DNA of 64,000 bases. Source: Phycisphaerales bacterium. GTDB lineage: Bacteria > Planctomycetota > Phycisphaerae > UBA1845. Positions 5,625 through 47,705 of this stretch are shown one piece after another. The notes beneath the pieces were generated by a model, which was not told the DNA's origin, did no database searches, and was given only the letters and a program-made list of their open reading frames with translations. The translations under genes and the position numbers were made by a program. The stretch is taken from the NCBI GenBank assembly GCA_020852275.1, contig JADZBE010000017.1, forward strand, positions 64,551-128,550, in the 5' to 3' direction. The stretch's first letter is position 1. Every line of letters starts with the position of its first letter.

Positions 5625-6638
5625 TTGCAGGATGCACGCACCGTGAGGAAACCGATGCGGTCCCAACCTGCTCCGACCCGCGCGCCGGCGCTGATCATCC
5701 GCAGCGTCTGGTCGATCGCGCTCGTGGCCGTCGTGCCCGCGCTGACCATCTTCGGATACGACATCAGCCAATCGCTCTCCGGATCGACGGGCGTGACGAT
5801 CCTCGATGACGATGAGAGCCGATTCAACCTGATCATCGCCGGGTTTTCCGTGCTGGCGGCGATTCTCATCTGGCGGCGATTCGTCATTTGGACGATGGGG
5901 CGCAAGGCGCTGACGGGGCTGATCGGCGTGATTCCCTTCGTGCAGGTCGTCGTGACGCAGCCGCTGTGGAACAGCGGCTGCGGCGGAGACACGCTGCTGG
6001 AGATGTGCCAGGAACAGGTGTCCCTCGGGCTGTGGATCTGGCTGTGCATCTGGGCGTGGTGGGGGTTGGAACTGAGCGCGGATCGCGTAACCCTGACGTG
6101 GAGGCGGTGGCGTATGACATCCGGCGGCAAACGCGTTTTGTGTTCCCTGGGCAGCATCCCGCTGATCGTCGGCGCTTTCGGCATCGTCTGGCAGGCGCTG
6201 GACGACTTCACCGATCTCGATTCGAACTGGGCGGGGACGGCGACGTTTCTCTGCGTTTCCGTGCTGGTGGTGACCGTCTGGATGCTCATCTGGCGAGGCC
6301 AGGTCGAGTGGAGCCGCTCCGTCTCCGCGCGGACGATGCTCCTCGCCGCCGCGCTGATCGCCCTGACGATCGGACCGATGCCCTGGCTTTGGGGGAAAGG
6401 TGGCGTCTTCTCGGAGATTTGCGTGTCGTTTCCCATCATCGGGTGGGGCGTGTGGATGGCGGCGACGATCGCCCTGTGGCCGATGAAGCCGTCTCCCGAG
6501 TCGCAGGGGGCAAGCGTTCCCATGTGTCCGATGTGCGGCTACGCGCTGGTGGGTCTGAAGCACACGCGCTGCCCGGAGTGCGGATCGGAACCGACGCTGG
6601 ATGAGCTTTGGGCAGCCTCACGCGAGCAGGGGATCTAG
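5625..6638 (+). CDS. polytopic membrane protein with a C-terminal CPxCG...CPECG zinc ribbon; function unknown (start may be Met11 at 5655)
   Basis: Track ORF with multiple hydrophobic, W-rich segments, ending ...VPMCPMCGYALVGLKHTRCPECGSEPTLDELW. The opposite-strand ORFs (5475..6563 and similar) are R/P/H/D-rich shadow ORFs. Confidence 0.6.
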   Translation: MQDARTVRKPMRSQPAPTRAPALIIRSVWSIALVAVVPALTIFGYDISQSLSGSTGVTILDDDESRFNLIIAGFSVLAAILIWRRFVIWTMGRKALTGLIGVIPFVQVVVTQPLWNSGCGGDTLLEMCQEQVSLGLWIWLCIWAWWGLELSADRVTLTWRRWRMTSGGKRVLCSLGSIPLIVGAFGIVWQALDDFTDLDSNWAGTATFLCVSVLVVTVWMLIWRGQVEWSRSVSARTMLLAAALIALTIGPMPWLWGKGGVFSEICVSFPIIGWGVWMAATIALWPMKPSPESQGASVPMCPMCGYALVGLKHTRCPECGSEPTLDELWAASREQGI

Positions 6639-7334
6639 AACCCGCCGGTTGGCCCCTCGATCGCCCGGCGGACGCCGCGCCGCGGCGATGCAGCCGCGCA
6701 GCCACGTCTCCAACCCCTCGAACGACGAAGCGAGCGTGAAGCTCGTGCGGAAGATCGGCGCGTGCGGATTCACCACGCGGATGTCCTGAGCCGCGCGGTC
6801 CACGTTGAATCGGGCGGCTTCGGCGAGGTCCATCTTCGAAATGACCACGGCGTCCGCCGTCTGAAAGAGATGAGCATACTTGGCAGGCTTGTCGTCGCCT
6901 TCCGCGGCGCTGAGCATGGAGAGCCGCGCGTGCTCGCCGAGGTCGAAGTTCGTCGGGCACACGCAGTTGCCGACATTCTCCACGACAATCAGGTCAAGTT
7001 CATCGACAGGGAGCCGCTCCAGCCCGCCGCGAACCAGCGCGGCCGTCAGGTGACATCCACCCTCCGTGAGCAACTGCACCACGGGCGCGCCCACGGCGGC
7101 GATGCGCTCGGCGTCGCGCGTGGTGGCGAGATCGCCTTCCAGCACACCGACCCGCAGGTCTTTTGCCAGCCGCGGAAGAAGCCGCTCCAGCAAGGACGTC
7201 TTGCCGCATCCGGCGCCGCCCAGCAGGTTCATCATGCACGCGCCCCGTCGCCGGAGCACCTCGCGGTTCTCATCGGCCGCGCGGTCGTTCTTCGCCAGAA
7301 CGCTTTTGCGGATGACTTCAATGCGCGATGCCAT
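6618..7334 (-). CDS. hypB: hydrogenase nickel-incorporation GTPase HypB
   Basis: Inner part of track ORF 6618..7589 starting at MASRIEV. It has the P-loop GGAGCGKTSLL, ...VVENVGNCVCP... and ...ISKMDL.... The start overlaps the hypA stop. Confidence 0.9.
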   Translation of the reverse strand: MASRIEVIRKSVLAKNDRAADENREVLRRRGACMMNLLGGAGCGKTSLLERLLPRLAKDLRVGVLEGDLATTRDAERIAAVGAPVVQLLTEGGCHLTAALVRGGLERLPVDELDLIVVENVGNCVCPTNFDLGEHARLSMLSAAEGDDKPAKYAHLFQTADAVVISKMDLAEAARFNVDRAAQDIRVVNPHAPIFRTSFTLASSFEGLETWLRGCIAAARRPPGDRGANRRVLDPLLA

Positions 7335-7794
7335 AACCCGGATCTCCAGCCGCGCTCGGGTCAGCCTGCGCGCCCGCGGCGCGCTCGTCCCGCCGACGGT
7401 CCGCAAGGCCCGCGCCGCCGCTTGGATCAAGTGGACCCGGCGCCGGCGATGCGTCGCTCTCGAACTCCATCGACGTGAGTTCCAGCTCGTCGCCGCCGCT
7501 GACGTCCGCGTCCGTCGAGCCGCAGGCGCGGCAACGCGTGTCAAACGTGTCCAGCCGCTCCTCCGCTCCGCAATGCAGGCACCGCACAATCGGCAGCGTC
7601 AGCGATACCTCCAGATCCGAGTGCGCCAACCGCCCCGCGCGGGCCATGTCGAAGGCGTCCTTGAGCATCTCCGGCTCGATCTGCCGCAGCGCGCCGACCT
7701 TCACGCGGAGGTGCAGCACGCTCGTGGCGCCCAGGCGTACCGCTTCGCCCTCCGCCAGTTCCGCAAGCGCCTGGGCAATCGCCAGCTCGTGCAT
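7318..7794 (-). CDS. hypA: hydrogenase maturation nickel metallochaperone HypA with a C-terminal extension
   Basis: MHELAIAQALAE... with two CxxC pairs (CLHCG...CRACG). A ~45-residue acidic, Pro/Gly-rich tail overlaps the hypB start by 17 nt. Confidence 0.85.
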   Translation of the reverse strand: MHELAIAQALAELAEGEAVRLGATSVLHLRVKVGALRQIEPEMLKDAFDMARAGRLAHSDLEVSLTLPIVRCLHCGAEERLDTFDTRCRACGSTDADVSGGDELELTSMEFESDASPAPGPLDPSGGAGLADRRRDERAAGAQADPSAAGDPGYGIAH

Positions 7795-7797
7795 ACA

Positions 7798-8301
7798 TCA
7801 CGCTTCCCGTCCGTCCTGGTCAAGATCCTGCAAGACGCGTTCCACGACCTCGTCCACGCATGAGGCCACTTCAGGCGACATGCTCAACGATCGCGCGAAC
7901 TGGGCGGCGAAAATCACATACAGCCGGATGCGCGGCGGGACGCCGTCCCATGCGGCCATCAGGTCCAGCCCGTTGGCGACGTCGATCTCATGCGTGGAAG
8001 GGCGCGATCTGCCGATCAGGCGCTGCCGCGGATCGCCGCAGAGCACGGTGAACGTGCCTGCGGGATGCGCGGCATCTGCGGGAGCGGCGTCGATCACCAA
8101 AAGCGTCCCGATTCGCGACCCCTCCAGTTGAGCCAGCGCCAGCCCGGGAGATTCGTCGCAAAGCACTTCCGCGCGGCCTCGCGCTCGTTCCCGCAACCGC
8201 TCACCGACGCGAAGCCCCGCCTGATCGTCGCCCATCGACCAGCGCCCGCAGCCCAGAATGACACATCGCCCGGTGTCGCGACTGTGACCTGCTTGCGTCA
8301 T
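7798..8301 (-). CDS. hydrogenase maturation endopeptidase (HyaD/HoxW family)
   Basis: Inner part of track ORF 7798..8385 from MTQAGHS. It has ...CVILGCGRWSMGDDQAGLRVGERL...LLVIDAA... and ...STHEIDV.... It lies directly downstream of the large subunit. Confidence 0.8.
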   Translation of the reverse strand: MTQAGHSRDTGRCVILGCGRWSMGDDQAGLRVGERLRERARGRAEVLCDESPGLALAQLEGSRIGTLLVIDAAPADAAHPAGTFTVLCGDPRQRLIGRSRPSTHEIDVANGLDLMAAWDGVPPRIRLYVIFAAQFARSLSMSPEVASCVDEVVERVLQDLDQDGREA

Positions 8302-19032: not shown

Positions 19033-19047
19033 TGGCACGCAGGTTGC
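19033..19047 (+). promoter_or_regulatory. candidate sigma54 (-24/-12) promoter TGGCACGCAGGTTGC
   Basis: Exact TGGCAC-N5-TTGC match, intergenic, ~95 nt upstream of the acyl-CoA synthetase ATG and correctly oriented. Confidence 0.5.
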
Positions 19048-19140
19048 CCATTCCCATGCCGGCGGCACGGGGCGCGGAGCGACCCTTCCACCGTGAACAA
19101 CCCTGCGCCCCGCCGCGCACCTCTACGTGGAGTTCAACGC

Positions 19141-32531: not shown

Positions 32532-32547
32532 AGCAAGCCCAATGCCA
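32532..32547 (-). promoter_or_regulatory. candidate sigma54 promoter TGGCATTGGGCTTGCT
   Basis: Exact TGGCA(T)-N5-TTGCT match on the minus strand, ~120 nt upstream of the groEL2 ATG, in intergenic sequence. Confidence 0.45.
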
Positions 32548-37370: not shown

Positions 37371-37747
37371 CCCCTTGCCTCCTGAAAAAACCACGTTCCC
37401 CCGTTTTCCCCCAGGGCGTTTCACCAGCTTACTTGAAAGTCCGGCGGAAACGAAATGCCCGCACTTCTGCACGGTCGGCGAAGATGCGCAACCTTATTCT
37501 GGAATGGAATCAGTGCCGCACGGCGCACCGAACTTGCCAGCCGGTTGCGACAGGGCAGTTTGGGCACGATCGCACGCTCCGCGCGTCCGCTGCTGCGCAT
37601 CCGCGCCACCCTCCGGTTGAGGGATTCCCAAAACAGGGTTGTCTTGGCGGGTGAGGATGGCCCTGAAGCGCTTCCCGTCGGACCTGATCGGCGGCGATTC
37701 GTCCGAGTGGGTGAACGGTGCTTCTCCTGCGTATCTCGCCTTGGGCG

Positions 37748-37762
37748 TGGCACGTAACATGC
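37748..37762 (+). promoter_or_regulatory. weaker sigma54-like element TGGCACGTAACATGC
   Basis: GG-N10-GC spacing is correct and the -24 box is perfect, but the -12 box is ATGC rather than TTGC. It lies ~150 nt upstream of the DHOD-like gene. Confidence 0.35.
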
Positions 37763-37912
37763 TCCAGTGGTCTGCAACAGAGGGTCAGAGATTGGAGGTT
37801 CCGCCGGGCCGGAAGGGCTTGCAGTGCGCGACGGAATCCGGCTGGTTCGGGCGGTACGCTGCTGCGCTGAGCGCGGCGGGTGGGGACGGGGGTCGATGAA
37901 AGGGAGCTGGAG

Positions 37913-38902
37913 ATGGACCTGACCACGAACTACATGGGCCTTCATCTGAAGGGTCCGCTTATCGTCGGCGCCGGACCGATGTCGGACACGCTGGATCGCG
38001 TCAAGCGCGTCGAGGACGCCGGCGCGTCGGCCATCGTGCTGCGCTCCCTCTTTGAGGAGCAGATCACCGCGGAAAGCCTGGCGACGCACAGCGCCTTCGT
38101 GGATGCGTCGTATTCCTACGGCGAGGCGACCACCTACCTTCCCGAACCGGAGGAGTTCGTGCTCGGTCCGCATGAATACCTCGATCATCTGCGCAAGGTG
38201 AAACAGGCCGTGGGCATTCCCGTCGTCGCATCCTTGAACGGCACGACGCCCGGCGGCTGGCTGGAGCACGCGCGGCTCATGGAGCAGGCAGGCGCCGACG
38301 CGCTGGAGTTGAACCTTTACTTCCTCAACACGGACGCAAACGTGGACGGACCGGCGCTGGAGCGCATGGCCATCGACATCGTGCGCACCGTGAAGCAGGC
38401 CGTGCGCATCCCCCTGTCCGTGAAGCTCTCGCCGTTCTTTACGTCCCTGGCGAACATGGGTCTTCGGCTCGGTGAACTCGGCGCGGACGGGCTGGTCCTC
38501 TACAACCGGTACTACGCGCCCGATGTCGATCTCGAACTGCTTCAGGCCGCCGGCCACCTGACGCTCTCCACCTCGCGCGACCTGCTTCCGCGGCTGCGCT
38601 GGCTGGCGATTCTGCACGGACAGGTCGAGTCGTCGCTGGCGGTGACCGGCGGCGTGCACACGGCGGAGGACGTCATCAAGGCGATGATGTGCGGCGCGGA
38701 TGCCGCGCAGATTGTTTCAGCGCTGCTGCTCAACGGACCGGAGTACCTCAAGAAGATCCGCGACGGGATTGAGGCCTGGCTGCACGAACATGAGTATGAG
38801 AATCTCCGCCAGCTCGTCGGCAGCATGAGCCTGGCGCGCTGCCCCAACCCGCAGGTGTTTGAACGCGGCAACTACATGCACCTCCTGCAGACGTGGGAAT
38901 GA
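37913..38902 (+). CDS. dihydroorotate dehydrogenase-like (class 1 DHOD fold) flavoprotein
   Basis: From MDLTTNYMGLHLKGPLIVGAGPMS..., with ...LELNLY... and ...GGVHTAEDVIKAMMCGADAAQIVSALL.... It is not necessarily PyrD. Confidence 0.72.
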   Translation: MDLTTNYMGLHLKGPLIVGAGPMSDTLDRVKRVEDAGASAIVLRSLFEEQITAESLATHSAFVDASYSYGEATTYLPEPEEFVLGPHEYLDHLRKVKQAVGIPVVASLNGTTPGGWLEHARLMEQAGADALELNLYFLNTDANVDGPALERMAIDIVRTVKQAVRIPLSVKLSPFFTSLANMGLRLGELGADGLVLYNRYYAPDVDLELLQAAGHLTLSTSRDLLPRLRWLAILHGQVESSLAVTGGVHTAEDVIKAMMCGADAAQIVSALLLNGPEYLKKIRDGIEAWLHEHEYENLRQLVGSMSLARCPNPQVFERGNYMHLLQTWE

Positions 38903-38983
38903 GGCGCGGCCCACTGCCCTCTGCCCTGTCAGCGCGCTGCATCAGCCCGGGGGAGGAACCGGTTGCATGAGCCTGTTGCAGGA

Positions 38984-39145
38984 CAGCCCGTGGTGAAAGG
39001 CGACGCGCGTCATTCCCGCAAAGGCGGGAATCCAGCCGGCAGCTTACGAGGAACGAGAAACGACCAGTTTTCCAAGGCGGACTGGACCCCCGCCTGCGCG
39101 GGGGTGACAGATCCCACGACGGGTTTCGAGTTTCACCACGGGCTG
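38984..39145. mobile_element. MITE-like element, full-length 162-bp copy
   Basis: CAGCCCGTGGTGAAAGGCGACGCGCGTCATTCCCGCAAAGGCGGGAATCC...GGACCCCCGCCTGCGCGGGGGTGAC...GAGTTTCACCACGGGCTG. CAGG is present on both flanks. Confidence 0.8.
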
Positions 39146-39208
39146 CCAGGCGACATTCCCACGCCATGGGGGGTGCACTGTGCCATTCCACTTGGATCGA
39201 CGCGATGA

Positions 39209-40843
39209 TCACTTGGGAGCGGTCGGTGCGGCCGGCGCGGGCGGCGCGGGCGGCGGGTTCTTGGCCGACGCCTGCCACTGGTGTTCCGGGCGCGCGAGGA
39301 TTTCCTCGATCACGGTCATGACGGCCTTGCCCTGCGCCTCCTTGCCTTCCTTCATCGCGTGTTCTGCAATCTCCTTCGCCTGCGGGATTACCGCCTGATA
39401 GAATCGCTCGGCCACCTCATACATGCCGTGCCAGTGCGTGTAATCCGGCGCCATCATGGACGCGCCGTGCCGCGCGCGCCGGCCCTCATGGTGCCACAGA
39501 TAATACCATGACCACTCGATCTCCTCGTCAAACTCAAACTTGGTGATCAGCCCCTGCTCCCGCAACGCATTGATGATCTTCAGCCCCGACTTGGCAAACT
39601 TCTCATTGAAAAGCACGACCAAATCGTCGTATTGCTTGTAGAAGCCGTTCACATAGTCCGGCGTGTGGCAATGCAGGCAGACCTCTTTCATTCGATCCCG
39701 CTTCTGCATGGCCGTATCAGTCACCAGCGCGGCGCGCTTCTGCGGATCCGTCTCCTTGACCACCGCGTGCTTCTCATCCGTGTCCATGGCCAGGCTGACC
39801 GGCGGGCGGTTGGTCCAGGAGATGCGCTGCCCCGGGTCGTGCGTCACCGGCGCTCCGCGGCTGTGCGCGGACATGTGACACGTCGCGCAGGTCGGGGCGG
39901 CCGCATAGTCCTTGCCGAGGACCCAGTCCTTCGAGTCGAGGTTCATGTCGTCCTTCAGGTCGCGGTAGGCCACGCCGTGCTTGGATTCCTCATAGATTTC
40001 CTTTTGAGGATGGTCCGGTCCAAGGTGGCACTTGCCGCAGTTTTCCGGTTGTCGGGCGCGCCGCGGAGAAAAGTCGTGACGGCTGTGACACGCGGAGCAC
40101 GAACCGAGCGAACCGTCGAGATTGATGCGACCGATGCCCGTATTCGGCCACGTGCCGGGGTGATATTTGGGCTTGCCTTCATCGTCGCGGACGATTTTCG
40201 CCAGCATTTCCGTGTTCGTCGGCTTTCCATCCGGGCCGGGTTTCAGGTCGTCGGCCGTGACCTTGCTTCCGTCCGCGGTCTGCAATCCCACCTTGCTGCC
40301 GTGGCATTGCTGACAACCCAGAAAAGCGCTGGCAAATCCATTGGCGTCGATAATGTCCGGCCGACCCGGCGTGGGGGAATGCGGATTGAAGAATCCGCGA
40401 TTGCCTTCGACCGTCTCCGCCAGAAAGTTGTCGAGCGAGGCGAGGATGTTCCCGGCTTTGGCGTGATGGCTATGTTCGAACTCGTCGGCTTCGTGCGGGT
40501 GGCAGCGCGCGCAGTCGCGCGGCGTGACCACGGTGGCGATGTGCTGCCCGTAGTGCTCGAAGCCGTCCACGTCGCCCGGGTCCGCCTGATGACACTCGAC
40601 GCAGGCGACGCCCTTTTCCGCGTGCGTGCTGCCCTTCCAGTGGGACACGAGGCCCGGCGTCTGCTGATCATGGCAGGTAATGCAGTCGTGGCTGGTCTGC
40701 GGAGCCATGGTCAGCAGCGTGGACATCGGCATCTGGGTTCGCGCCATGTGCTTGCGCGACTCCATCTCCGCCACCATGATCAGTGCAATGCACAGACCAA
40801 TGCCAAGCACGAATACGATGATTTTCTTGGTGTTAAGCGACAC
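39209..40843 (-). CDS. membrane-anchored octahaem c-type cytochrome, hydroxylamine-oxidoreductase (HAO/HDH) family-like
   Basis: N-terminal TM helix (KKIIVFVLGIGLCIALIMV). Eight CxxCH motifs: CITCH, CVECH, CARCH, CQQCH, CSACH, CGKCH, CATCH, CLHCH. It also has CSACHSRHDF, CGKCHLGPDHPQ and C-terminal WHHEGRRARHGASMMAPDY segments that I recall as HAO-family-like. The family assignment is from memory and was not searched. Confidence 0.75.
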   Translation of the reverse strand: MSLNTKKIIVFVLGIGLCIALIMVAEMESRKHMARTQMPMSTLLTMAPQTSHDCITCHDQQTPGLVSHWKGSTHAEKGVACVECHQADPGDVDGFEHYGQHIATVVTPRDCARCHPHEADEFEHSHHAKAGNILASLDNFLAETVEGNRGFFNPHSPTPGRPDIIDANGFASAFLGCQQCHGSKVGLQTADGSKVTADDLKPGPDGKPTNTEMLAKIVRDDEGKPKYHPGTWPNTGIGRINLDGSLGSCSACHSRHDFSPRRARQPENCGKCHLGPDHPQKEIYEESKHGVAYRDLKDDMNLDSKDWVLGKDYAAAPTCATCHMSAHSRGAPVTHDPGQRISWTNRPPVSLAMDTDEKHAVVKETDPQKRAALVTDTAMQKRDRMKEVCLHCHTPDYVNGFYKQYDDLVVLFNEKFAKSGLKIINALREQGLITKFEFDEEIEWSWYYLWHHEGRRARHGASMMAPDYTHWHGMYEVAERFYQAVIPQAKEIAEHAMKEGKEAQGKAVMTVIEEILARPEHQWQASAKNPPPAPPAPAAPTAPK

Positions 40844-40855
40844 CGGATGGACTCC

Positions 40856-42325
40856 TTAGACCATGGCTTCCCAGACCGTCAACGTCAGGAACCCCAGAAA
40901 TGCGACAATGCCGATATACACGCCAAGATCCTTCTTGGGCGCGAGTCTCTCCAGAAATGTGTCCACAAAGGGCCACAGAATCAGCAGGGCGAACATGGCG
41001 CCCGTCAGCAGCACGGCCGTATTGAGGCCCATGAGTTTGAGAAGCCGGAACTGGAAGAAGAAATACCACTCGGGCTTGATGTGCTCGGGTGTGACCAGCG
41101 GATTGGCCTTCTCGCCCAGCTCCGCCGGAAAAACCAGCGTCAGCAACGTGAGCAGGAAGAGCAGCAAGGTCCCGATCATGACCTCCGTCAAAATATGATC
41201 CGGGAAGAAATTGAACGGCTTGTCTTCTCCCGTGCCTTCCTCGAAGCGCCGGTTGCGCGCCATTCCATACACCACGGTCACGGCCAGCACGACCGAAGCG
41301 ATCGCCCAGCCCATCGTGTTGGGCGCTTCCTGATTGACCAAATCAAAGACCAGTTTGCCGAGCGCCAGCAGCGCGAGAAGCAACCAGATCATCAGACCGT
41401 ACATATGACCCCGGAAGAGCAGGACGGACGCCGTCGCGGCCACCGTGCCCGCCACCATCCAGAATATCCGGCTGCTTTCCAGGCTGAGCTGATGCGCGAT
41501 GACGTTGACCGCGACGGGGTTCCACGCGGCCATGCCCGCGCAGCCCAGCGCGATGATCGCCGCGAGCAGCGCAACCAGCTTGACGCCGGGGAGCCGGCGC
41601 GCGGGCTTGCGCTGCGCGTCCCCGGGGCGCGGCGCCTGAACGAACGAAAGCTCGGACACGCCGTGCAGCCTCAGCATTGTGACGTGCAATCCGATCAGCA
41701 CCACCACCGCGACCGGCAGAATGCCCACGTGCAGGTTGAACATGCGCGTCAGCGTGTTGGGACTGACCTCCTCGCCGCCGCGCATGAAGTTGGCAATCAC
41801 GCCGCCCACGAGTGGAATGGCCGACGTCAGCTCCGTCGCCACCGTGATGCCCCAATAACTGAGCTGCTCGAACACCAGCGAATAACCGGTGAATCCCAAT
41901 GTCACGGTTGAAAGAAGCAGTCCGCAGCCGATCACCCAGTTCAACTGGCGCGGATGTCGAAAGGCGCAGGAAAAATACACACGGCACATGTGCAGCAGCA
42001 CCGTGATGATCATCAGGTTGGCCGCCCACTTGTGGATGCTGCGGATGAACCAGCCGTAGGGAATCTGCTCTGAGATGTTGCGAACGCTCTCGAAGGCGTG
42101 GTCGGGCGAGGGCACATAATAGAACGTCAGCATGATGCCGGTGGTCAGTTGGATGAGGAACAGGTAAGCGGGCGTGCCGCCCAGCGCGAACCACCAGCGC
42201 TTGATGTGCCCCGGCACCGGCTCGTTGGTGACGTCCTGCACGCGACCCCAGTCCAGCGGCAGCATCTGGTAGAGCCGCCGCCCGCTGCGAACCGGTCCGT
42301 GCCCCTGGGTCAGTTCAGGCGTCAT
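40856..42325 (-). CDS. fused cytochrome b (b6 + subunit IV-like + extra helices), dihaem
   Basis: From MTPELTQGHG.... Helix B carries SIHKWAANLMIITVLLHM (H-x13-H) and helix D carries LHVGILPVAVVVLIGLH (H-x14-H). A PEWYF motif appears in the C-terminal half. Its ATG overlaps the Rieske stop (ATGA). Confidence 0.85.
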   Translation of the reverse strand: MTPELTQGHGPVRSGRRLYQMLPLDWGRVQDVTNEPVPGHIKRWWFALGGTPAYLFLIQLTTGIMLTFYYVPSPDHAFESVRNISEQIPYGWFIRSIHKWAANLMIITVLLHMCRVYFSCAFRHPRQLNWVIGCGLLLSTVTLGFTGYSLVFEQLSYWGITVATELTSAIPLVGGVIANFMRGGEEVSPNTLTRMFNLHVGILPVAVVVLIGLHVTMLRLHGVSELSFVQAPRPGDAQRKPARRLPGVKLVALLAAIIALGCAGMAAWNPVAVNVIAHQLSLESSRIFWMVAGTVAATASVLLFRGHMYGLMIWLLLALLALGKLVFDLVNQEAPNTMGWAIASVVLAVTVVYGMARNRRFEEGTGEDKPFNFFPDHILTEVMIGTLLLFLLTLLTLVFPAELGEKANPLVTPEHIKPEWYFFFQFRLLKLMGLNTAVLLTGAMFALLILWPFVDTFLERLAPKKDLGVYIGIVAFLGFLTLTVWEAMV

Positions 42326-42819
42326 ATCTCGCTCCCCACCGTGACCTCGACGAACACCCAACCGCGCTTTGCATCGACGGTCAGAGCATACTCGCGCAAG
42401 TTCTTCCCCTCCGCGGCCGGCGGACCGGAAAGCGCCACGCCGTTCTTATCGAAGATGCCGTTATGGCACGGGCAGACGAACTGTTGCGATCCCGATTCCC
42501 AGTGCACGTTGCAACCCAGGTGCGGACAGCGGCTCGAAAGGGCCTTGAAACCCGCCGCGGGATTCTCCGCAGACTCGGACGTGCGGGCAATGGCGATGGT
42601 GTGTCCCTGCGGGTCGTGGACCGTCAGGCTTCGCCCCACGGGAATATCGTTCAACGTCCCAACGAACAGGCCGGTCTTGCGCGTGCGCTTCAGTGGAACG
42701 AGGTACTCAAAGAACCTGTACAGTCCATGACCATAGCCGGCTATGAGTCCGCCGACCATCGCCACGGTTGTGATGAACCCGCGGCGCCCGGCGGCGTGCG
42801 GTGCCCCGTCTTTTTCCAT
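42322..42819 (-). CDS. Rieske [2Fe-2S] protein
   Basis: From MEKDGAPHAAGRRGFITTVAMVGG (Tat-like RR plus a TM helix). Cluster ligands are CPHLGC...CPCHNGIF. A GGGGAG RBS is present. Confidence 0.85.
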   Translation of the reverse strand: MEKDGAPHAAGRRGFITTVAMVGGLIAGYGHGLYRFFEYLVPLKRTRKTGLFVGTLNDIPVGRSLTVHDPQGHTIAIARTSESAENPAAGFKALSSRCPHLGCNVHWESGSQQFVCPCHNGIFDKNGVALSGPPAAEGKNLREYALTVDAKRGWVFVEVTVGSEI

Positions 42820-42940
42820 GCGGAAACTCCCCTGCAACTTGTGCACCCGCGCGGAGGCCCGGAAGGGGCTCAACCTGCCGTGCGATCGTGAACTCGAAAG
42901 GCGGCCTGACCCGCGACGCCGCGCTCCGGAGTCTTCCGGA

Positions 42941-43588
42941 CTATTTTGACAGTTGTTCGGTTTGAAGCAAGATGGCGGTGGCTTTTTGCAGCGCGTGCTG
43001 GACCCCGCGCGCCGCGCCTTCCGGAACGCGCAGGTAGAGAGACGCCTCGGGCCCGTCGCGCCGCATGCGCGAGACCACGGCGCTGATGATGGGGTGCTCA
43101 CCCTCCGCCAGCGCGCGGAACACGCGGGCGATGTCCTTGCAACCGTGCGGCAGCGCGACTTCCAGCCGGCGCCCCGGTTCCTCCAGCCCGAGGATTTGGT
43201 GGAGCGCCCTCAGCAAATCGAGCGTCGTCAGAATCCCGACCAGTTCCGCGGAAGTGGCGCCCGCCGCGCCATGGCGCATCACCGGAAGCGCCCCGAATCG
43301 CCCGCTCGATAGAACCGAGAGCGCGTCCTCCAGCGTCGCCTCCGCGTCGATCGTCACCGGATCGGGCGTCATGGCCTCGCTCACCGTGAGTTTCTCGCCC
43401 AGCGTGCGATCGAAGCCGATCGCCGACCGCACATCCCGATCGCTGATCATTCCCGTCAGGCGGTTCGCCTCGTCGAGAACGGGCAGGTGATGAATGCGGT
43501 GTCGCGCCATCAGATCGGCGGCCAGCGCCAGCGCCGCATCCTGGCGGATCGTGTAGGGCGAGGACGTCATGAGATCTTCGACAAACAC
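42941..43588 (-). CDS. CBS-pair domain protein with a C-terminal ACT-like domain
   Basis: ...VEDLMTSSPYTIRQD...HRIHHLPVLDE.NRLTGMISDRDV...VSEAMTPDPVTIDAE...ALPVM.... Confidence 0.8.
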   Translation of the reverse strand: MFVEDLMTSSPYTIRQDAALALAADLMARHRIHHLPVLDEANRLTGMISDRDVRSAIGFDRTLGEKLTVSEAMTPDPVTIDAEATLEDALSVLSSGRFGALPVMRHGAAGATSAELVGILTTLDLLRALHQILGLEEPGRRLEVALPHGCKDIARVFRALAEGEHPIISAVVSRMRRDGPEASLYLRVPEGAARGVQHALQKATAILLQTEQLSK

Positions 43589-43598
43589 GACACACCTC

Positions 43599-44015
43599 TC
43601 AATCCGGCTCCTGCGGCGTCACGCCCAGGCGGCGCGCTAAATCGACAAGCTGAAACGGCTTCTCCAGGAGCGACTCGCGCCGACGCGAGGGTCGCGACCG
43701 CGTCTGGTCCGTCACCAGGCGCACGATGCGCACCCCGCTGTCCTGCCTCTCAAGAGCGCTCTCCAGCCGATCCAGACCTTCCGCAGGCCAGGCGTCCGTG
43801 ACCACCGCCGCGTCCACATGGGCGCCGCGGGCCACTTCGCACGCTTCCGGAAGGGTCTGAACGATGACCACTTCAAACCACCGCTGCAGATAGCAGGCCA
43901 GCGACCAACGCAGCAGCGGTTCAGGCTCGGCCAGCATGAGCCGTGCGCGCGGGCGCGCCGCAGGTTCGCCGGTCGGTGCATCTGGCGCTTTCCGGGATGT
44001 GGATCGCTGACTCAC
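43599..44015 (-). CDS. small receiver-like protein (atypical acidic pocket), GTG start
   Basis: ...RLMLAEPEPLLRWSL...VDAAVVTD...VRIVRLVTD...LEKPFQLVDLARRLG. It has a receiver-like layout, but the usual N-terminal DD is replaced by EPEP. A GGAG RBS precedes the GTG at 44013-15. Confidence 0.55.
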   Translation of the reverse strand: MSQRSTSRKAPDAPTGEPAARPRARLMLAEPEPLLRWSLACYLQRWFEVVIVQTLPEACEVARGAHVDAAVVTDAWPAEGLDRLESALERQDSGVRIVRLVTDQTRSRPSRRRESLLEKPFQLVDLARRLGVTPQEPD

Positions 44016-44049
44016 AAGCTCGCTCCGGCCGTTCCCTCGGCAAGCCGCG

Positions 44050-44064
44050 TGCCGCTCCCCGGGG
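44050..44064 (-). promoter_or_regulatory. candidate sigma54 promoter CGGCACGCGGCTTGC (minus strand)
   Basis: GGCACG-N4-TTGC with correct spacing, 35-50 nt upstream of the first gene of the receiver/CBS/Rieske/cyt b/octahaem operon. Confidence 0.55.
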
Positions 44065-44466
44065 CCACTAATGCGGCGGTAGAAGGCTCGCTGTTACTGC
44101 CCGCCAGTCCACGGACAACAGGATGCCTGCCCCAACCCTCAACCTTCGGTAAAAAGACATACAAGTCGCTTATTTGTGAATGGCTTTCCGGCACCCGACG
44201 GGGGCCCCCGGCGGGGCCAGCCACCGTTGAGTCAACGCCGCTCGCCGCTGGGCGGGACCTCGCAAAGGGTGTGTCTAATGACCCACTCATCCCCTTAACG
44301 TGCCTTCGATTGCCCTGACGATTCTCAAGACAAGCTCGTCAAGGCGAGCGCTTTAGCGGCGCCTGAACCGTCAGAAACTCAGCTTGAACTTCATAACATA
44401 TTGCATAAAAAAAGGTTACAGAACAGGAACATGTTCACATAGGCGTAAAGTCCGACGCATTTCCGC

Positions 44467-44482
44467 TGGCACAACCCTTGCT
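44467..44482 (+). promoter_or_regulatory. candidate sigma54 promoter TGGCACAACCCTTGCT
   Basis: Exact TGGCAC-N5-TTGCT match in the 726-bp divergent intergenic region, upstream of the globin-coupled kinase and NtrC-like genes. Confidence 0.6.
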
Positions 44483-44741
44483 CTAGCGCCAGCGCTCGAT
44501 GCGACCGCGAGGCTGTTCGCACGCGCAGGCGTGCATTATGGGTTCTCCGGCGCAGGCGACTTTCCCAATGACCAGAAGAACCACTACCAAGGGTAGTTTC
44601 AGGATCGACCCGGACGCCGGCGTCGAGCATGATGTCGGCCGTCAAGGGAGGTCTACCCAAGACCTGTCCGCGCACGATTCTCGAAAACGGGAACATGCCA
44701 AATTCACTGTTCGCACCTACAATGCGGACGTGGATACAGCG

Positions 44742-45914
44742 ATGCTTGACGAGATGAAGCGGTACGTCGGGTTCACTCCCAGCGACGAGGAGAACCTACG
44801 CTCCCTTCAACCCCATGTTCGACCGCTGGTTTCGGCGGTGGTGGACCGGTTCTACGACGAGTTGTTTCGCCATCAGGCCACCCGGGAAGTTTTTTCCGGC
44901 GGTCATGAGCAGGTGGCGCGGTTGCGGGCCACGCTGAAAGAATGGCTGGGAGAGCTGTTCGACGGGGTCTATGACGAATCGTACCTGCGGAAGCGTTTCC
45001 GAATCGGCGTCATGCACGTGCGGGTTCAGCTTCCTCAGCGCTTCATGTTCCTCGGGATGGAGCTGGTCCGGCAGGAACTGACTCAGCACTTGCGCAAGAA
45101 GGATCTGCCGCGGATAGAGGAGCTGCTGGAGTCGGTGCACCGCATCCTGACGCTCGACTTGGCCATCATGTTGGAAAGCTACAAGGAGAGCTACTCCGAC
45201 CAGATCCGCCGGCTGGAGCGCAGCTCGATGGAAGACCGCCTCACCCGCGCGGAGCGCCTGGCGGAAATCGGGCAACTTGCCGCGTCGCTGGCGCACGAGA
45301 TCAAGAACCCGCTGGCGGGCATCAGCGGAGCAATCCAGGTCATCGGCGAGCACATGAGCGCCGGCAACCCCCACCGGCCCATCGTGGGGGAGATTCTGCG
45401 GCAGATCAACCGGCTCGACGCCACCGTGAAAGACCTGTTGCTTTACGCCCGACCTCGCCCGCCCAAACTGGTGAACGTCTCGCTGGGCGGGATCGTCGAA
45501 CGCGTGCTGACGCTCCTCAAAGAAGAGCCGGCCATGAACGGTCGCCGCGTCGAATACGCCCGACCCAAGACGGAGGTTCAAGTGCTGGGGGACGACGGGC
45601 AACTCGAGCAGGTGCTTCTCAATCTCATGCTCAACGCGGCGGATGCTTCGCCGCCGGGGCGGGCCATTCACGTCGCCATCGAGGCGGACACGCGCTGGTC
45701 GCGGCTGACTGTTGTGGATCAGGGCAAGGGCATGTCGCCGGAGATTCTCGCCAAGGCCAACGAGCCCTTCTTCACAACGAAAGCCAAGGGAACAGGGCTG
45801 GGGCTGCCGATCTGCCAGCGGATCGTCCAAAGCCACGGCGGGATGTTGCACCTTGAAAGCGCCGCGGGACGAGGAACCAAGGTGACGCTGGAGCTTCCGG
45901 CTGGCGAGGAGTGA
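44742..45914 (+). CDS. globin-coupled sensor histidine kinase (protoglobin-type sensor + HisKA + HATPase_c)
   Basis: From MLDEMKRYVGFTPSDEENLRSL...VDRFYDELF...RKRFRIGVMHVRVQLPQRFMFLGMELV (globin-coupled-sensor layout with a candidate proximal His). The H-box is LAASLAHEIKNPLAGI, followed by NLMLNA, DQGKGM and GTGLGL. The upstream 81 codons of the track ORF have weaker third-position GC. Confidence 0.78.
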   Translation: MLDEMKRYVGFTPSDEENLRSLQPHVRPLVSAVVDRFYDELFRHQATREVFSGGHEQVARLRATLKEWLGELFDGVYDESYLRKRFRIGVMHVRVQLPQRFMFLGMELVRQELTQHLRKKDLPRIEELLESVHRILTLDLAIMLESYKESYSDQIRRLERSSMEDRLTRAERLAEIGQLAASLAHEIKNPLAGISGAIQVIGEHMSAGNPHRPIVGEILRQINRLDATVKDLLLYARPRPPKLVNVSLGGIVERVLTLLKEEPAMNGRRVEYARPKTEVQVLGDDGQLEQVLLNLMLNAADASPPGRAIHVAIEADTRWSRLTVVDQGKGMSPEILAKANEPFFTTKAKGTGLGLPICQRIVQSHGGMLHLESAAGRGTKVTLELPAGEE

Positions 45915-45936
45915 GGCGGTGGGGAAACGAGCGTGG

Positions 45937-46093
45937 GGTTCAGGAATTGAGGTTCAGGGTTCAGGGTTCAGGCAAGGACCTACAACCATCCATACCCGAT
46001 CACCCGAGTACCCGAGCACCCGAGTACCCGAGTTCCCGCACGACGCACGATGCACGACGCACGACGCACGACGCACGACGCACGAAACACGAC
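45937..46093. repeat. three adjacent short tandem arrays: GGTTCAG x3-4, ACCCGAG(T/C) x4, GCACGAC x8
   Basis: Direct reading: 45937-45971, 46002-46036 and 46038-46093, all between the kinase stop and the NtrC-like start. Confidence 0.9.
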
Positions 46094-46116
46094 ACGCCTA
46101 ACCCAGATTCGCGAGA

Positions 46117-47484
46117 TTGACTATGACGGTCCGCATCTTGATTATCGAAGATGAGCAACTGATCCGCTGGTCCCTGCGCCAGAAGTTCGAGGCGCTGGGC
46201 TTTCACGTCACCGAGGCCGACTGCGGCGCCAAGGCGCTCGAGGCGCTGGAGAGCGGGATCTTCGATCTGATCATGCTCGACTACCGCCTGCCGGACATGA
46301 CCGGGCTGGACATCCTCTCGCACATCCGCGAGCGCGACCACGACGTGGTCGTCATCATGATGACGGCCTTCTCCACCATCGAAAGCGCCGTGGACGCCAT
46401 GAAGATGGGCGCGTACGACTACATCACCAAGCCCTTCGACATGGACCAGCTCCTGCGCAACGTCAACAAGGCGCTGGAGACGACCAAGCTGCGCCGCGAG
46501 GTCCGCCAGTACCGCGAGCACATGGAGAACGAGTACGGCATCTCCCGCATCGTCGGACAGGACGTCTGCATGTTGGAGCTGTTCGACATCATCCAGCGCG
46601 TGGCCGGCAGCGGCGCGTCCACCGTCTTCCTCCGCGGCGAGTCGGGCACGGGCAAGGATCTCGTCGCGCGGGTGATTCACTACAACTCGGACCGCGCGCC
46701 GCGCCCGTTCATGAACATCACCTGCACCGCGCTGTCCGAGAGCCTGCTGGAAAGCGAGTTGTTCGGGCACGAGCGCGGCGCGTTCACCGACGCCAAGTCG
46801 CTGAAGAAAGGGCTGTTCGAGTTGTCCGACGGCGGCACGATCTTCCTCGACGAGGTGGGCGACATGCCCGCGGGTCTGCAGGCCAAGCTGCTTCGCTTTC
46901 TCGAGGAGCGCACCTTCCGCCGCGTGGGCGGCACGACGGAGATATCCGTGGACGTCCGCGTGATCGCCGCCACCAACCGCGACATCGAAAAGGCCATCGA
47001 CCTGGGCCAGTTCCGCAGCGACCTGCTCTACCGGCTTAACGTCATCTCGATCCTGCTGCCTCCCCTGCGCGACCGTGGCAGCGACATCCGCCTGCTGGCG
47101 CAGCACCTCGTCGCGCGGTTTGCCAAGGAGTTCCGCAAGCCCGTGGGCGGCATCGACGAATCCGCCTATCAAAAGCTGGGGTCTTACGCCTGGCCTGGCA
47201 ACGTGCGCGAGCTGCGCAACGTGCTGGAGCGCGCCGTGCTCCTGAGCCGGGGCGAGACGCTCACCGCCGACGACGTCTTCCTCGGCGCGACCCGCGCGGC
47301 CGCGACGAACTCGCGCACCGGCTTCGTCCTCCCCGCCGAAGGGCTGGACCTCAAGGAGCTGGAGGGCGACCTGATCCGCCAGGCCATGGATCGCACCAGC
47401 AGCAACCAGACCCAGGCCGCCCGTCTCCTCGGTCTCCGCCGCGACGCGTTCCGTTACCGGCTGGAAAAACTGGGGATGCTGTAG
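46117..47484 (+). CDS. sigma54-dependent response regulator (NtrC/AtoC family: receiver + AAA+ + Fis-type HTH)
   Basis: [16 protein letters not shown]...[14 protein letters not shown]; Walker A GESGTGKD; GAFTDA (GAFTGA variant); C-terminal ...[26 protein letters not shown]. Confidence 0.92.
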
Positions 47485-47705
47485 CGATTCTAAGCGCCGG
47501 GTCATTCGATCGGCCGCGAACGAACCCCGCAGCATGGGCGACTCCCTGCCTTTCGCTGATCGTGGCACGCGGAGGATGTCGTGTGCGGGGGGGCATGGAG
47601 CGTTGCGTGCAGCGGATGCGATGCTGCCGCGCCCCGCCCCATGCCGTCCCAGGTTGCGTTATTGACACTCCGACAGGCACGTTGAACACGTTCCGCCAAA
47701 GGAGG

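Follow-up and report, generated by a model that had tools for sequence, protein, structure and literature searches.

Octahaem cytochromes c encoded beside a Rieske protein and a cytochrome b have been described in several bacteria. In Nitrospira, an octahaem cytochrome c (ONR/OCC) stands beside Rieske and cytochrome b genes in a petBC-like arrangement (Koch 2015; PMC6606698, PMC6311188, PMC12342949). The Nitrospira trio is co-expressed when nitrite is the sole nitrogen source (PMC6606698), and its products have been suggested to form a complex that connects nitrite reduction with the quinone pool (PMC6606698, PMC6311188, PMC12342949). Caldithrix abyssi, which reduces nitrate to ammonium, encodes a Rieske protein, a cytochrome b and an epsilon-Hao (Cabys_2558-2556) at the end of its nap cluster, and this trio is its only candidate for nitrite ammonification (PMC5317091). 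Among anammox bacteria, the Rieske/cytochrome b (R/b) cluster R/b-3 of Kuenenia stuttgartiensis (Kuste4569-4574) holds an HAO-like octahaem protein (PMC12954380, PMC12485887), and the anammox R/b complexes have extra subunit-IV helices with a proposed extra haem b (PMC12954380). For the Phycisphaerae, a survey found 'Onr' with a Hao model and suggested it as a replacement for NirK/NirS, overlooking the adjacent Rieske and cytochrome b genes (PMC11266412); Oslofjord genomes that are among the loci analysed here were reported with 'hao' and 'R/b' genes (PMC10732223). Here, we describe such a trio in a 64,000-nucleotide (nt) stretch of a Phycisphaerales genome (contig JADZBE010000017.1), hereafter the window. 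The locus under study (39209-47484) comprises seven genes in two divergent arms: a five-gene minus-strand operon that ends in the trio, and a plus-strand pair encoding a globin-coupled histidine kinase and an NtrC-type sigma-54 activator.

The regulatory arm has its own described counterparts. AfGcHK is a globin-coupled kinase activated by the binding of O2 to Fe(II) haem (PMC8697598). In Myxococcus, the homologue NmpU heads the NmpRSTU pathway and acts via an inverter kinase on the NtrC-like protein NmpR (PMC11841059). Among the members of the Nmp low-oxygen regulon are a cbb3 oxidase and universal stress proteins, and the pathway regulates its own expression through a sigma-54 site (PMC11841059). 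The route from NmpU to NmpR thus shows by experiment that a globin kinase can govern a sigma-54 respiratory regulon together with its own genes (PMC11841059).

Taken together, the data are best explained, at somewhat better than an even chance, by a menaquinol-linked Rieske/cytochrome b/octahaem complex that reduces nitrite and is made under the control of the globin kinase and the sigma-54 activator. The Rieske/cytochrome b/octahaem trio itself was known before. New here are the direct pairing of a globin kinase with an activator carrying a GAFTDA loop, the two leader genes for a pseudo-receiver and a CBS protein, and an insertion of four helices in cytochrome b. The regulatory wiring is thus the distinctive part of the locus; the enzyme trio is common in bacteria.

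The octahaem protein and its probable quinol-oxidising partners

The octahaem protein is assigned to the HAO family, as a first-pass annotation of the window had proposed, and not to Otr or MccA, the alternative which that annotation had left standing; the Pfam match, the ranking of solved structures and the profile alignment agree on this. It scores 76.5 bits against PF13447 (cut-off 21.9), and its eight CxxCH motifs, which start at residues 54, 81, 111, 177, 249, 269, 319 and 389, are invariant in an alignment of 14 octahaem sequences. Among solved structures the best match is IhOCC of Ignicoccus hospitalis (4qo5; E 7e-43), followed by the Kuenenia HAO-like protein 6h5l (5e-24), which we take to be the reductive HAOr of that organism. 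The oxidative enzymes, HAO of N. europaea (NeHAO) and HOX and HDH of Kuenenia, rank lower (1e-14 to 1e-18; 8e-18 for 1fgj/4fas), and a profile of the octahaem family reproduces the order 4qo5, 6h5l, then NeHAO, HOX and HDH. The NCBIfam hydrazine_HDH equivalog gives 70 bits against a cut-off of 900. At the level of the alignment, the segment CHLGPDHP corresponds to CHSGVDHN of NeHAO and CHMGPDHP of 6h5l, which would supply the distal Asp-His pair. Reductive HAOs lack the cross-linking Tyr, and His has been reported at that site (PMC12758564).

The octahaem protein begins with a hydrophobic helix (residues 3-31), the sole segment of its AlphaFold2 model that is confidently predicted (predicted local distance difference test, pLDDT, 86-91). 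No signal-peptidase motif is conserved at the N-terminus across the 14 aligned sequences. Because the helix is conserved without such a motif, a membrane anchor is favoured over a cleaved signal.

The two partners carry the features expected of a quinol-oxidising pair. The Rieske protein (PF00355, 37 bits) has the cluster motifs CPHLGC...CPCH and a twin-arginine translocation (Tat) motif, RRGF. Its sequence CPCHNGIF lacks the potential-raising Ser/Tyr pair, which by the criterion of PMC12954380 suggests a low-potential cluster of the menaquinol type. In cytochrome b, the haem ligands are H98-x13-H112 and H199-x14-H214, and the Qo motif PEWY lies at 418; the protein matches PF00033 with 178.6 bits in its b6-like part and PF00032 with 38.6 bits in its subunit-IV-like part. 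Between these parts, at residues ~235-370, lies an insertion of 135 amino acids (aa) with four predicted transmembrane helices. It is found only in a Phycisphaerae-type clade, 8 of the 86 non-redundant loci whose neighbourhoods were compared (individual loci carry the prefix L), and the remaining cytochromes b are ~349 aa long. Two histidine motifs in the insertion, IAHxL and RGHxYGL, are conserved and recur in L001, L005, L006 and L009. The third gene of the trio codes for the octahaem protein, and the operon contains no gene of the c1/f type. The best NCBIfam match of the N-terminal domain of cytochrome b is ExtP, from a selenite/tellurite reduction operon; this reading was dropped, as its 220 bits fall below the cut-off of 290.

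The trio is widespread, as a module that is either mobile or under strong constraint and is tied to nitrate and nitrite metabolism; it is no peculiarity of anammox bacteria. The first-pass annotation had held such an operon to be unusual outside anammox, a view that is contradicted by earlier genome descriptions and by the scan made here. With one genome per species, at least 584 genomes contained an octahaem relative; in the best 80 of these, the octahaem proteins are 64-73% identical and come from eight or more phyla, with carriers in Planctomycetota, Gemmatimonadota, Acidobacteriota (Thermoanaerobaculia), Myxococcota, Chloroflexota (Anaerolineales), Binatia, Eiseniibacteriota, Krumholzibacteriota and others. 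Poriferisphaera corsica is a cultured carrier of the octahaem protein (PMC11266412). The protein database held more than 8000 octahaem matches and 262 clusters at 50% identity with E<=1e-30; the members of these clusters bear generic names ('hydroxylamine dehydrogenase'), and no Kuenenia, Nitrospira or Caldithrix entries were among them. A Rieske gene lies upstream of the octahaem gene in 74 of the 76 loci whose flank is long enough, and a cytochrome b gene is present in 84 of 86. Across loci L010-L089 the Rieske partner is ~35-45% identical and cytochrome b ~50%. That the octahaem protein is conserved above its partners implies either very strong constraint or frequent horizontal exchange relative to them.

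Gene context elsewhere agrees with the link to N-oxides that had been proposed from the window alone. NapA directly follows the trio in 24 of 65 loci and NapB in 23 (~37%), including L006, L010 and L011 of the long-cytochrome-b clade to which the window belongs; ~60% of loci, the window among them, have no Nap gene adjoining the trio. In L008 and L009 the trio stands beside NnrS/DUF1858, an Rrf2 regulator and a molybdopterin enzyme that is paired with a cytochrome c. Clustering of neighbours recovered Rrf2 proteins (10 loci), sigma-54 activators (5 loci) and CBS proteins (4 loci), together with an Alginate_exp-type porin (14 loci) and two groups of universal stress proteins (7 and 6 loci). The identification of the Rrf2 neighbours as NsrR was dropped, as they match only the generic Rrf2 superfamily. 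The gene for the Alginate_exp-family outer-membrane porin follows NapAB in its 14 loci (for example L006 15984-17667 and L011 9266-10867). Universal stress protein genes flank the trio in ~13 loci; such proteins are also members of the Myxococcus NmpR low-oxygen regulon.

The regulatory arm and its sigma-54 elements

By its domains and haem ligands, the sensor is a true globin-coupled kinase of the AfGcHK/NmpU type. It matches PF11563 (128.5 bits), HisKA (51.6) and HATPase_c (94.2), and its globin domain aligns with AfGcHK (5ohe) at 109 bits (E 1.7e-30), with the proximal His (MHVRV) and the distal Tyr (FYD) conserved. The adjacent activator combines Response_reg (107.8 bits), Sigma54_activat (217.9) and HTH_8 (38.5) domains with the Walker A motif GESGTGKD. 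Its sigma-54 contact loop reads GAFTDA (residue ~236), as against the standard GAFTGA. A GAFTDA or GSFTDA loop is present in all five activators examined that are partnered with a globin kinase (window, L005, L090, L091 and L092), and also in the activator of L081, though the L081 kinase showed no globin match; the activators at the trio loci L014 and L074 retain G[AS]FTGA. No second sigma-54 activator is encoded in the window.

The genomes nearest to the locus are Phycisphaerae metagenome-assembled genomes, and one of these provides a reference for the intergenic DNA. This locus, L005 (assembly GCA_964526695.1), is 95% identical and keeps the whole seven-gene layout, the divergent arrangement included. 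Gene calls in L005 and the intergenic alignment indicate that the kinase most likely starts at ATG 44742, which replaces an earlier reading of the start at 44499.

Two divergent sigma-54 elements had been proposed between the arms, and both are present. On the kinase side stands TGGCACAACCCTTGCT; nowhere else in the window is TGGCAC-N5-TTGCW matched exactly, and 0.07 matches would be expected by chance. For the core GGCAC-N5-TTGC, the window has three matches where chance would give 0.9, and two of these three lie in the kinase/operon intergenic region, pointing outwards, each towards its own arm. The operon-side element, CGGCACGCGGCTTGCC, lies at 44040-44055, ~10 nt from the earlier placement at 44050-44064, and thus 25-40 nt upstream of GTG 44015. 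In comparison with L005, the intergenic region is mostly ~50% diverged, and both -24/-12 elements stand out as perfectly conserved islands. The operon-side block AGCGGCACGCGGCTTGC is 100% the same in L005 amid diverged flanks. The kinase-side block reads TGGCACAACC, a C/T position and TTGCTCTA in the comparison of window and L005, the L005 form being TGGCACAACCTTTGCT.

A further conserved segment covers the start of the kinase gene: ~70 nt of leader and the first codons (window 44626-44741; alignment A2, columns 1-116) are ~98% the same as in L005. A sigma-70-like element, ATGCCA-17-TACAAT, falls inside this segment and, at the level of consensus only, may be a proximal basal promoter of the kinase genes. 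For the 252-nt leader that would run from the kinase-side sigma-54 start, folding is more stable than for shuffled sequences (z = -3.2); an Rfam scan of 37400-47700 returned no credible RNA family.

The pairing of kinase and activator extends beyond this locus. Kinase orthologues 50-63% identical are widespread in Phycisphaerae, and the pair is kept in L090, L091 (cultured strain RAS1) and L092 with varying neighbours. In L092 (JGI 3300037422 contig, 5985-8000), two back-to-back sigma-54 sites, the only ones scoring >=10/11 in 17 kb, face the kinase arm on one side and, on the other, a CBS-led pyruvate:ferredoxin oxidoreductase operon. This design suggests that the pair controls differing anaerobic redox operons from genome to genome, each led by a CBS gene. 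Three other lineages (L014, L081 and L074) also have a sigma-54 activator adjoining the trio. The L014 locus runs from a PAS kinase through the activator and a true single-domain receiver to Rieske, cytochrome b and octahaem, and the 72-nt gap ahead of the receiver gene contains AGGTATATTTTTTGCT. Since both the kinase-activator design and activators at the side of the trio recur, a functional link between regulator and operon is likely.

The first product of the operon resembles the activator's own receiver domain. It has no Pfam match even at E<=10, so the label 'receiver-like' given to it earlier is borne out by profile comparison and not by Pfam. BLASTP matches the full length of the protein to the receiver domain of the activator (E 3e-4), and hhalign against a receiver alignment gives a probability of 88% (E 3e-6, 102 columns). 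In the hhalign alignment, the position of the phospho-acceptor Asp is Thr, with Asp one residue later, and one Asp of the acidic pocket is Pro; the conserved Thr and the lysine of KPF are kept. A single-sequence AlphaFold2 model of the protein (pLDDT 54.5) gave nothing at E<=0.001 in a Foldseek search of the PDB, so the receiver relationship is drawn from hhalign and BLASTP. The start at GTG 44015 is preceded by GGAG at 7 nt, and the codon changes relative to L005, which are synonymous or conservative with no frameshift, fit this start. Helix alpha1 of the protein, LLRWSL, closely resembles LIRWSL of the activator, and it is mainly through alpha1 that receiver domains dock to kinases. With an activator-like alpha1 retained and the phospho-acceptor Asp lost, the protein may be a pseudo-receiver, competing for the kinase and acting on it as decoy or feedback modulator. 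The second product, the CBS-pair protein, carries a C-terminal extension of ~85 aa with no assigned domain. Upstream of the trio, CBS proteins are also encoded in L005, L074 and L088, and the CBS pair may provide an adenylate or energy input.

The features of the locus are collected in Table 1. All seven genes of the first-pass annotation are present, with their haem, Rieske and cytochrome b motifs, and all but the first operon gene are matched by Pfam profiles; profiles and motif checks bear out the 489-aa fused dihaem cytochrome b, the Rieske motifs, and the domains, GESGTGKD and GAFTDA of the protoglobin kinase and NtrC-type activator. The Rieske stop and cytochrome b start do overlap as ATGA, and the cytochrome b stop and octahaem GTG are indeed separated by 12 nt, a spacer that carries GGAG; these junctions indicate translational coupling of the three genes. 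Tight packing of the five genes holds in general, with the exception of a gap of 121 nt between the CBS and Rieske genes. An element of the form GG-N10-GC 14 nt before the Rieske ATG was dropped as a promoter, as it overlaps the ribosome-binding site.

Table 1. Genes and candidate promoter elements at and beside the divergent locus (window coordinates).
Feature	Position	Strand	Description
Octahaem cytochrome c, HAO family	39209-40843	-	544 aa; GTG start; PF13447; proposed catalytic subunit
Fused cytochrome b	40856-42325	-	489 aa from ATG 42325; PF00033 + PF00032
Rieske 2Fe-2S protein	42322-42819	-	165 aa; PF00355; Tat motif and membrane anchor
CBS-pair protein	42941-43588	-	215 aa; PF00571, 99.3 bits over two stretches
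Degenerate receiver-like protein	43599-44015	-	138 aa from GTG 44015, or 112 aa from ATG 43937; first operon gene
Sigma-54 -24/-12 element CGGCACGCGGCTTGCC	44040-44055	-	Before the five-gene operon; core match
Sigma-54 -24/-12 element TGGCACAACCCTTGCT	44467-44482	+	Before the kinase and activator genes; exact consensus
Sigma-70-like promoter ATGCCA-17-TACAAT	44695-44723	+	Promoter scan; consensus-level only
Globin-coupled histidine kinase	44742-45914	+	390 aa; protoglobin-HisKA-HATPase
NtrC-type sigma-54 activator	46117-47484	+	455 aa; REC-AAA+(sigma54)-HTH_8
Sigma-54-like element TGGCACGTAACATGCT	37748-37763	+	150 nt upstream of the dihydroorotate-dehydrogenase-like gene; one mismatch
Dihydroorotate-dehydrogenase-like protein	37913-38902	+	329 aa; NCBIfam NF005741, 426 bits vs cut-off 303

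The dihydroorotate-dehydrogenase-like (DHOD-like) gene converges on the octahaem gene and is the same neighbour in L005. The motif of its upstream element is found again, as TGGCACGCAACATGCA, ahead of the L005 orthologue, where the flanks are unalignable; the gene possibly belongs to the same regulon via this third sigma-54 promoter. Two near-consensus sigma-54 sites lie elsewhere in the window: TGGCACGCAGGTTGCC (19033-19048, plus strand), which has the sequence of the kinase-side site in L092 and lies ~125 nt ahead of a gene for an AMP-dependent synthetase/ligase, and TGGCATTGGGCTTGCT (32532-32547, minus strand), ~120 nt before groEL. These could be chance matches or further sigma-54 targets.

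Proposed mechanism and rival explanations

From the gene content, motifs, family memberships and synteny, and from the conservation of promoter elements and haem ligands, we infer a complex, its substrate and product, a link between regulator and promoter, and a signal. The five-gene operon would give rise to a three-subunit membrane complex and two small regulatory proteins. The Tat-exported Rieske protein and the fused dihaem cytochrome b would oxidise menaquinol, with the N-terminally anchored octahaem cytochrome standing in for cytochrome c1/f. One quinol electron would pass at Qo (PEWY) to the Rieske cluster and then along the eight-haem chain to the catalytic haem, where nitrite would be reduced. 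The product is most likely ammonium, which the evidence from Nitrospira and Caldithrix favours (PMC6606698, PMC5317091), with NO or hydroxylamine chemistry as alternatives. The second electron would recycle through haems bL and bH, and such a Q-cycle would couple N-oxide reduction to the proton-motive force. Reduction of this electrogenic kind has been shown in Campylobacter for a Nap that depends on Qcr (PMC6195509).

Expression of the complex would depend on the facing arm. The operon would be transcribed from the sigma-54 promoter at 44040-44055 and switched on by the divergent NtrC-type activator; the adjacent cytoplasmic globin kinase would phosphorylate this activator, reading O2 and possibly NO, CO or the redox state of its haem. 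The kinase and activator genes would have a sigma-54 promoter of their own for autoregulation and the proximal sigma-70-like promoter for basal expression. As the first operon product, a receiver without a phospho-acceptor Asp might act back on the kinase as decoy or feedback modulator, and the CBS protein possibly adds an adenylate or energy input. A more elaborate form of this scheme, doubtful when taken as a whole, would make the locus a self-contained, gas-responsive circuit of a kind that has not been described before. In it, the globin kinase would directly phosphorylate the GAFTDA activator with no inverter, firing three sigma-54 promoters (those of the respiratory operon, of the activator's own genes and of the DHOD-like gene); the non-phosphorylatable receiver decoy would mimic the activator's alpha1; the enzyme would be a proton-motive menaquinol:nitrite oxidoreductase with a trimeric octahaem protein replacing c1/f; and the two insertion histidines could hold an additional haem.

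A number of observations weigh against the favoured explanation. HAO-family enzymes form trimers and bc complexes form dimers, which poses a problem of stoichiometry for a fixed complex. HMMER alignments of the octahaem protein with NeHAO end at residue 349, leaving the position of the P460 cross-link Tyr unread, and the AlphaFold2 model built from the 14-sequence alignment is poor (pLDDT 53.9; predicted template-modelling score 0.32). The literature searched holds no biochemical characterisation of any member of the simple trio, and the window contains no nap, nir or nor gene. On the regulatory side, the -12 element is only ~25 nt from GTG 44015, giving a leader of ~14 nt. A search for an inverted repeat common to the window and L005, as a site for the activator, found none. 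In L001, the nearest relative from another species (87% identity), the trio stands without any of these regulators, and among the 86 loci a globin kinase occurs in two and any sigma-54 activator in five; the wiring would thus be recent and lineage-specific. Finally, behaviour like that of AfGcHK, combined with the direct wiring, predicts induction by O2, the reverse of the Nmp logic and unexpected for an anaerobic reductase; sensing of NO or CO, or a dominant phosphatase mode, would change the predicted sign.

The nature of the product and the role of the octahaem protein are the points at which two alternatives to the favoured explanation diverge from it. In the one, which is possible though not probable, the same complex would make NO from nitrite, as Kuenenia HAOr does, and so provide the missing NirK/NirS-type step in place of ammonium formation. 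The second-best solved relative, 6h5l, taken above to be HAOr itself, has an identical GPDHP motif; the trio in L008 and L009 has NnrS/DUF1858 and Rrf2 beside it, which are typical NO-related neighbours. Phycisphaerae genomes with narGH and norB and without nirK or nirS have led to a proposal of this very role (PMC11266412), and Kuste4574 in R/b-3 has been proposed to make NO (PMC12485887, PMC12954380). However, the best solved relative is IhOCC and not 6h5l, ammonium is the product indicated by the data from Nitrospira (PMC6606698) and Caldithrix (PMC5317091), the Rrf2 neighbours cannot be identified as NsrR, and the window is without a nor gene. In the other alternative, the octahaem protein would serve mainly in electron transfer or detoxification, reducing hydroxylamine or NO or passing electrons to NapAB, selenite, tellurite or metals, and would not be a dedicated nitrite reductase. 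The ExtP match points this way, as does the make-up of the NapAB loci: no NapC, NapGH or other Nap-linked quinol dehydrogenase appears among their recurrent neighbours, although no specific search was made for one. The trio could then be the quinol dehydrogenase of Nap in these loci, as proposed in Caldithrix (PMC5317091) and shown for Campylobacter Qcr (PMC6195509). This role is very unlikely to be the main one, given that the ExtP score is below its cut-off, that the catalytic Asp-His pair and the 64-73% octahaem identity across phyla argue for conserved catalysis, and that ~60% of loci, including this one, have no Nap beside the trio.

The regulatory half of the favoured explanation faces an alternative of its own: the kinase-activator pair and the respiratory operon could be mere neighbours. 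The pair would then regulate itself or distant targets, and the operon-side element would be served by another activator or be no promoter at all. Orthologous pairs do stand beside unrelated genes in L090 and L091, and the regulator-free trio of L001 and the lack of a shared activator-binding repeat, both noted above, fit equally. Sigma-54-like sites upstream of Rieske genes are also only weakly enriched (17% of 82 loci score >=9/11, against a background of 7.5%), so that sigma-54 control is not a family-wide property. Against such coincidence stand the perfect conservation of both elements in L005 amid diverged DNA, the retention there of the divergent layout, the parallel architecture of L092, the recurrence of activators at the trio in L014, L081 and L074, and the fact that the window encodes no other sigma-54 activator. 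Mere adjacency is therefore considered unlikely, and control of the nitrite-reducing complex by the facing pair remains the preferred reading.

Significance and comparison with known systems

The trio is found in at least 584 species genomes from at least eight phyla, and many of these genomes, Phycisphaerae included, have no NirK, NirS or NrfA. Whether its product is ammonium or NO decides between retention of nitrogen and its loss as gas by abundant bacteria of soil, sediment and wastewater, and whether a Q-cycle operates decides the energy yield of nitrite respiration. The present locus gives a defined set of sensor, regulator and promoters that predicts when the complex is made, and, in its globin kinase and NtrC-type activator, a minimal and direct pair that can be compared with the four-component Nmp pathway. 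Taken alone, it overturns nothing; it adds a regulatory variant to a module that had been flagged before in the genomes of Nitrospira, Caldithrix and anammox bacteria.

Compared by description, the Nitrospira cluster shares with the window the co-directional order of Rieske, cytochrome b and octahaem genes, and the same hypothesis that a nitrite reductase replaces c1/f. Its surroundings are a nitrogen-assimilation region and not a globin kinase with a sigma-54 activator, and neither receiver or CBS genes nor a four-helix insertion in cytochrome b have been reported for it. The Caldithrix trio, likewise compared by description, has an HAO-family octahaem gene directly behind the Rieske and cytochrome b genes and a proposed route from quinol to a nitrite reductase. 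It is Nap-linked, as are 24 of 65 loci of the family; in contrast, the window is without Nap and has other regulators.

The R/b-3 cluster of Kuenenia also unites a complex of the Rieske/b6 type with an HAO-like octahaem protein proposed to reduce nitrite (PMC12954380, PMC12485887). The first-pass annotation had gone further and likened the composition of the operon to this cluster, a likeness that does not hold when set against PMC12954380. R/b-3 contains an NAD(P) oxidoreductase and a further multihaem (hexa- or octahaem) c subunit, and the operon of the window has neither. Its b6 and subunit IV are split, the latter with five helices, whereas cytochrome b in the window is fused; and its Rieske protein is of high potential with the Ser/Tyr pair that the window protein lacks. 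For the octahaem protein itself, IhOCC (4qo5) and Kuenenia 6h5l are the nearest solved relatives and share its haem motifs, and the catalytic segment CHxGPDHP is common to the protein and 6h5l. Identity to either is only about 30-45% within aligned blocks, and IhOCC has Asp-Val where the window protein has Asp-His.

The regulators resemble AfGcHK and the Nmp pathway in having a cytoplasmic kinase of protoglobin-HisKA-HATPase architecture with the same haem ligands, and an NtrC-like sigma-54 output (PMC8697598, PMC11841059). Nmp autoregulates its sensor operon from a sigma-54 site, and the kinase arm of the window is also preceded by a sigma-54 element. However, Nmp relies on an inverter hybrid kinase, NmpS (REC-HisKA-CA), and a double-receiver sink, NmpT, neither of which is encoded at this locus, and the loop of the window's activator reads GAFTDA, not GAFTGA. 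At this locus, the gene for the globin kinase directly adjoins that for the activator, and the sole extra receiver is the degenerate one in the target operon. Because of this direct pairing, the regulatory logic of the locus may be the opposite of that of Nmp.

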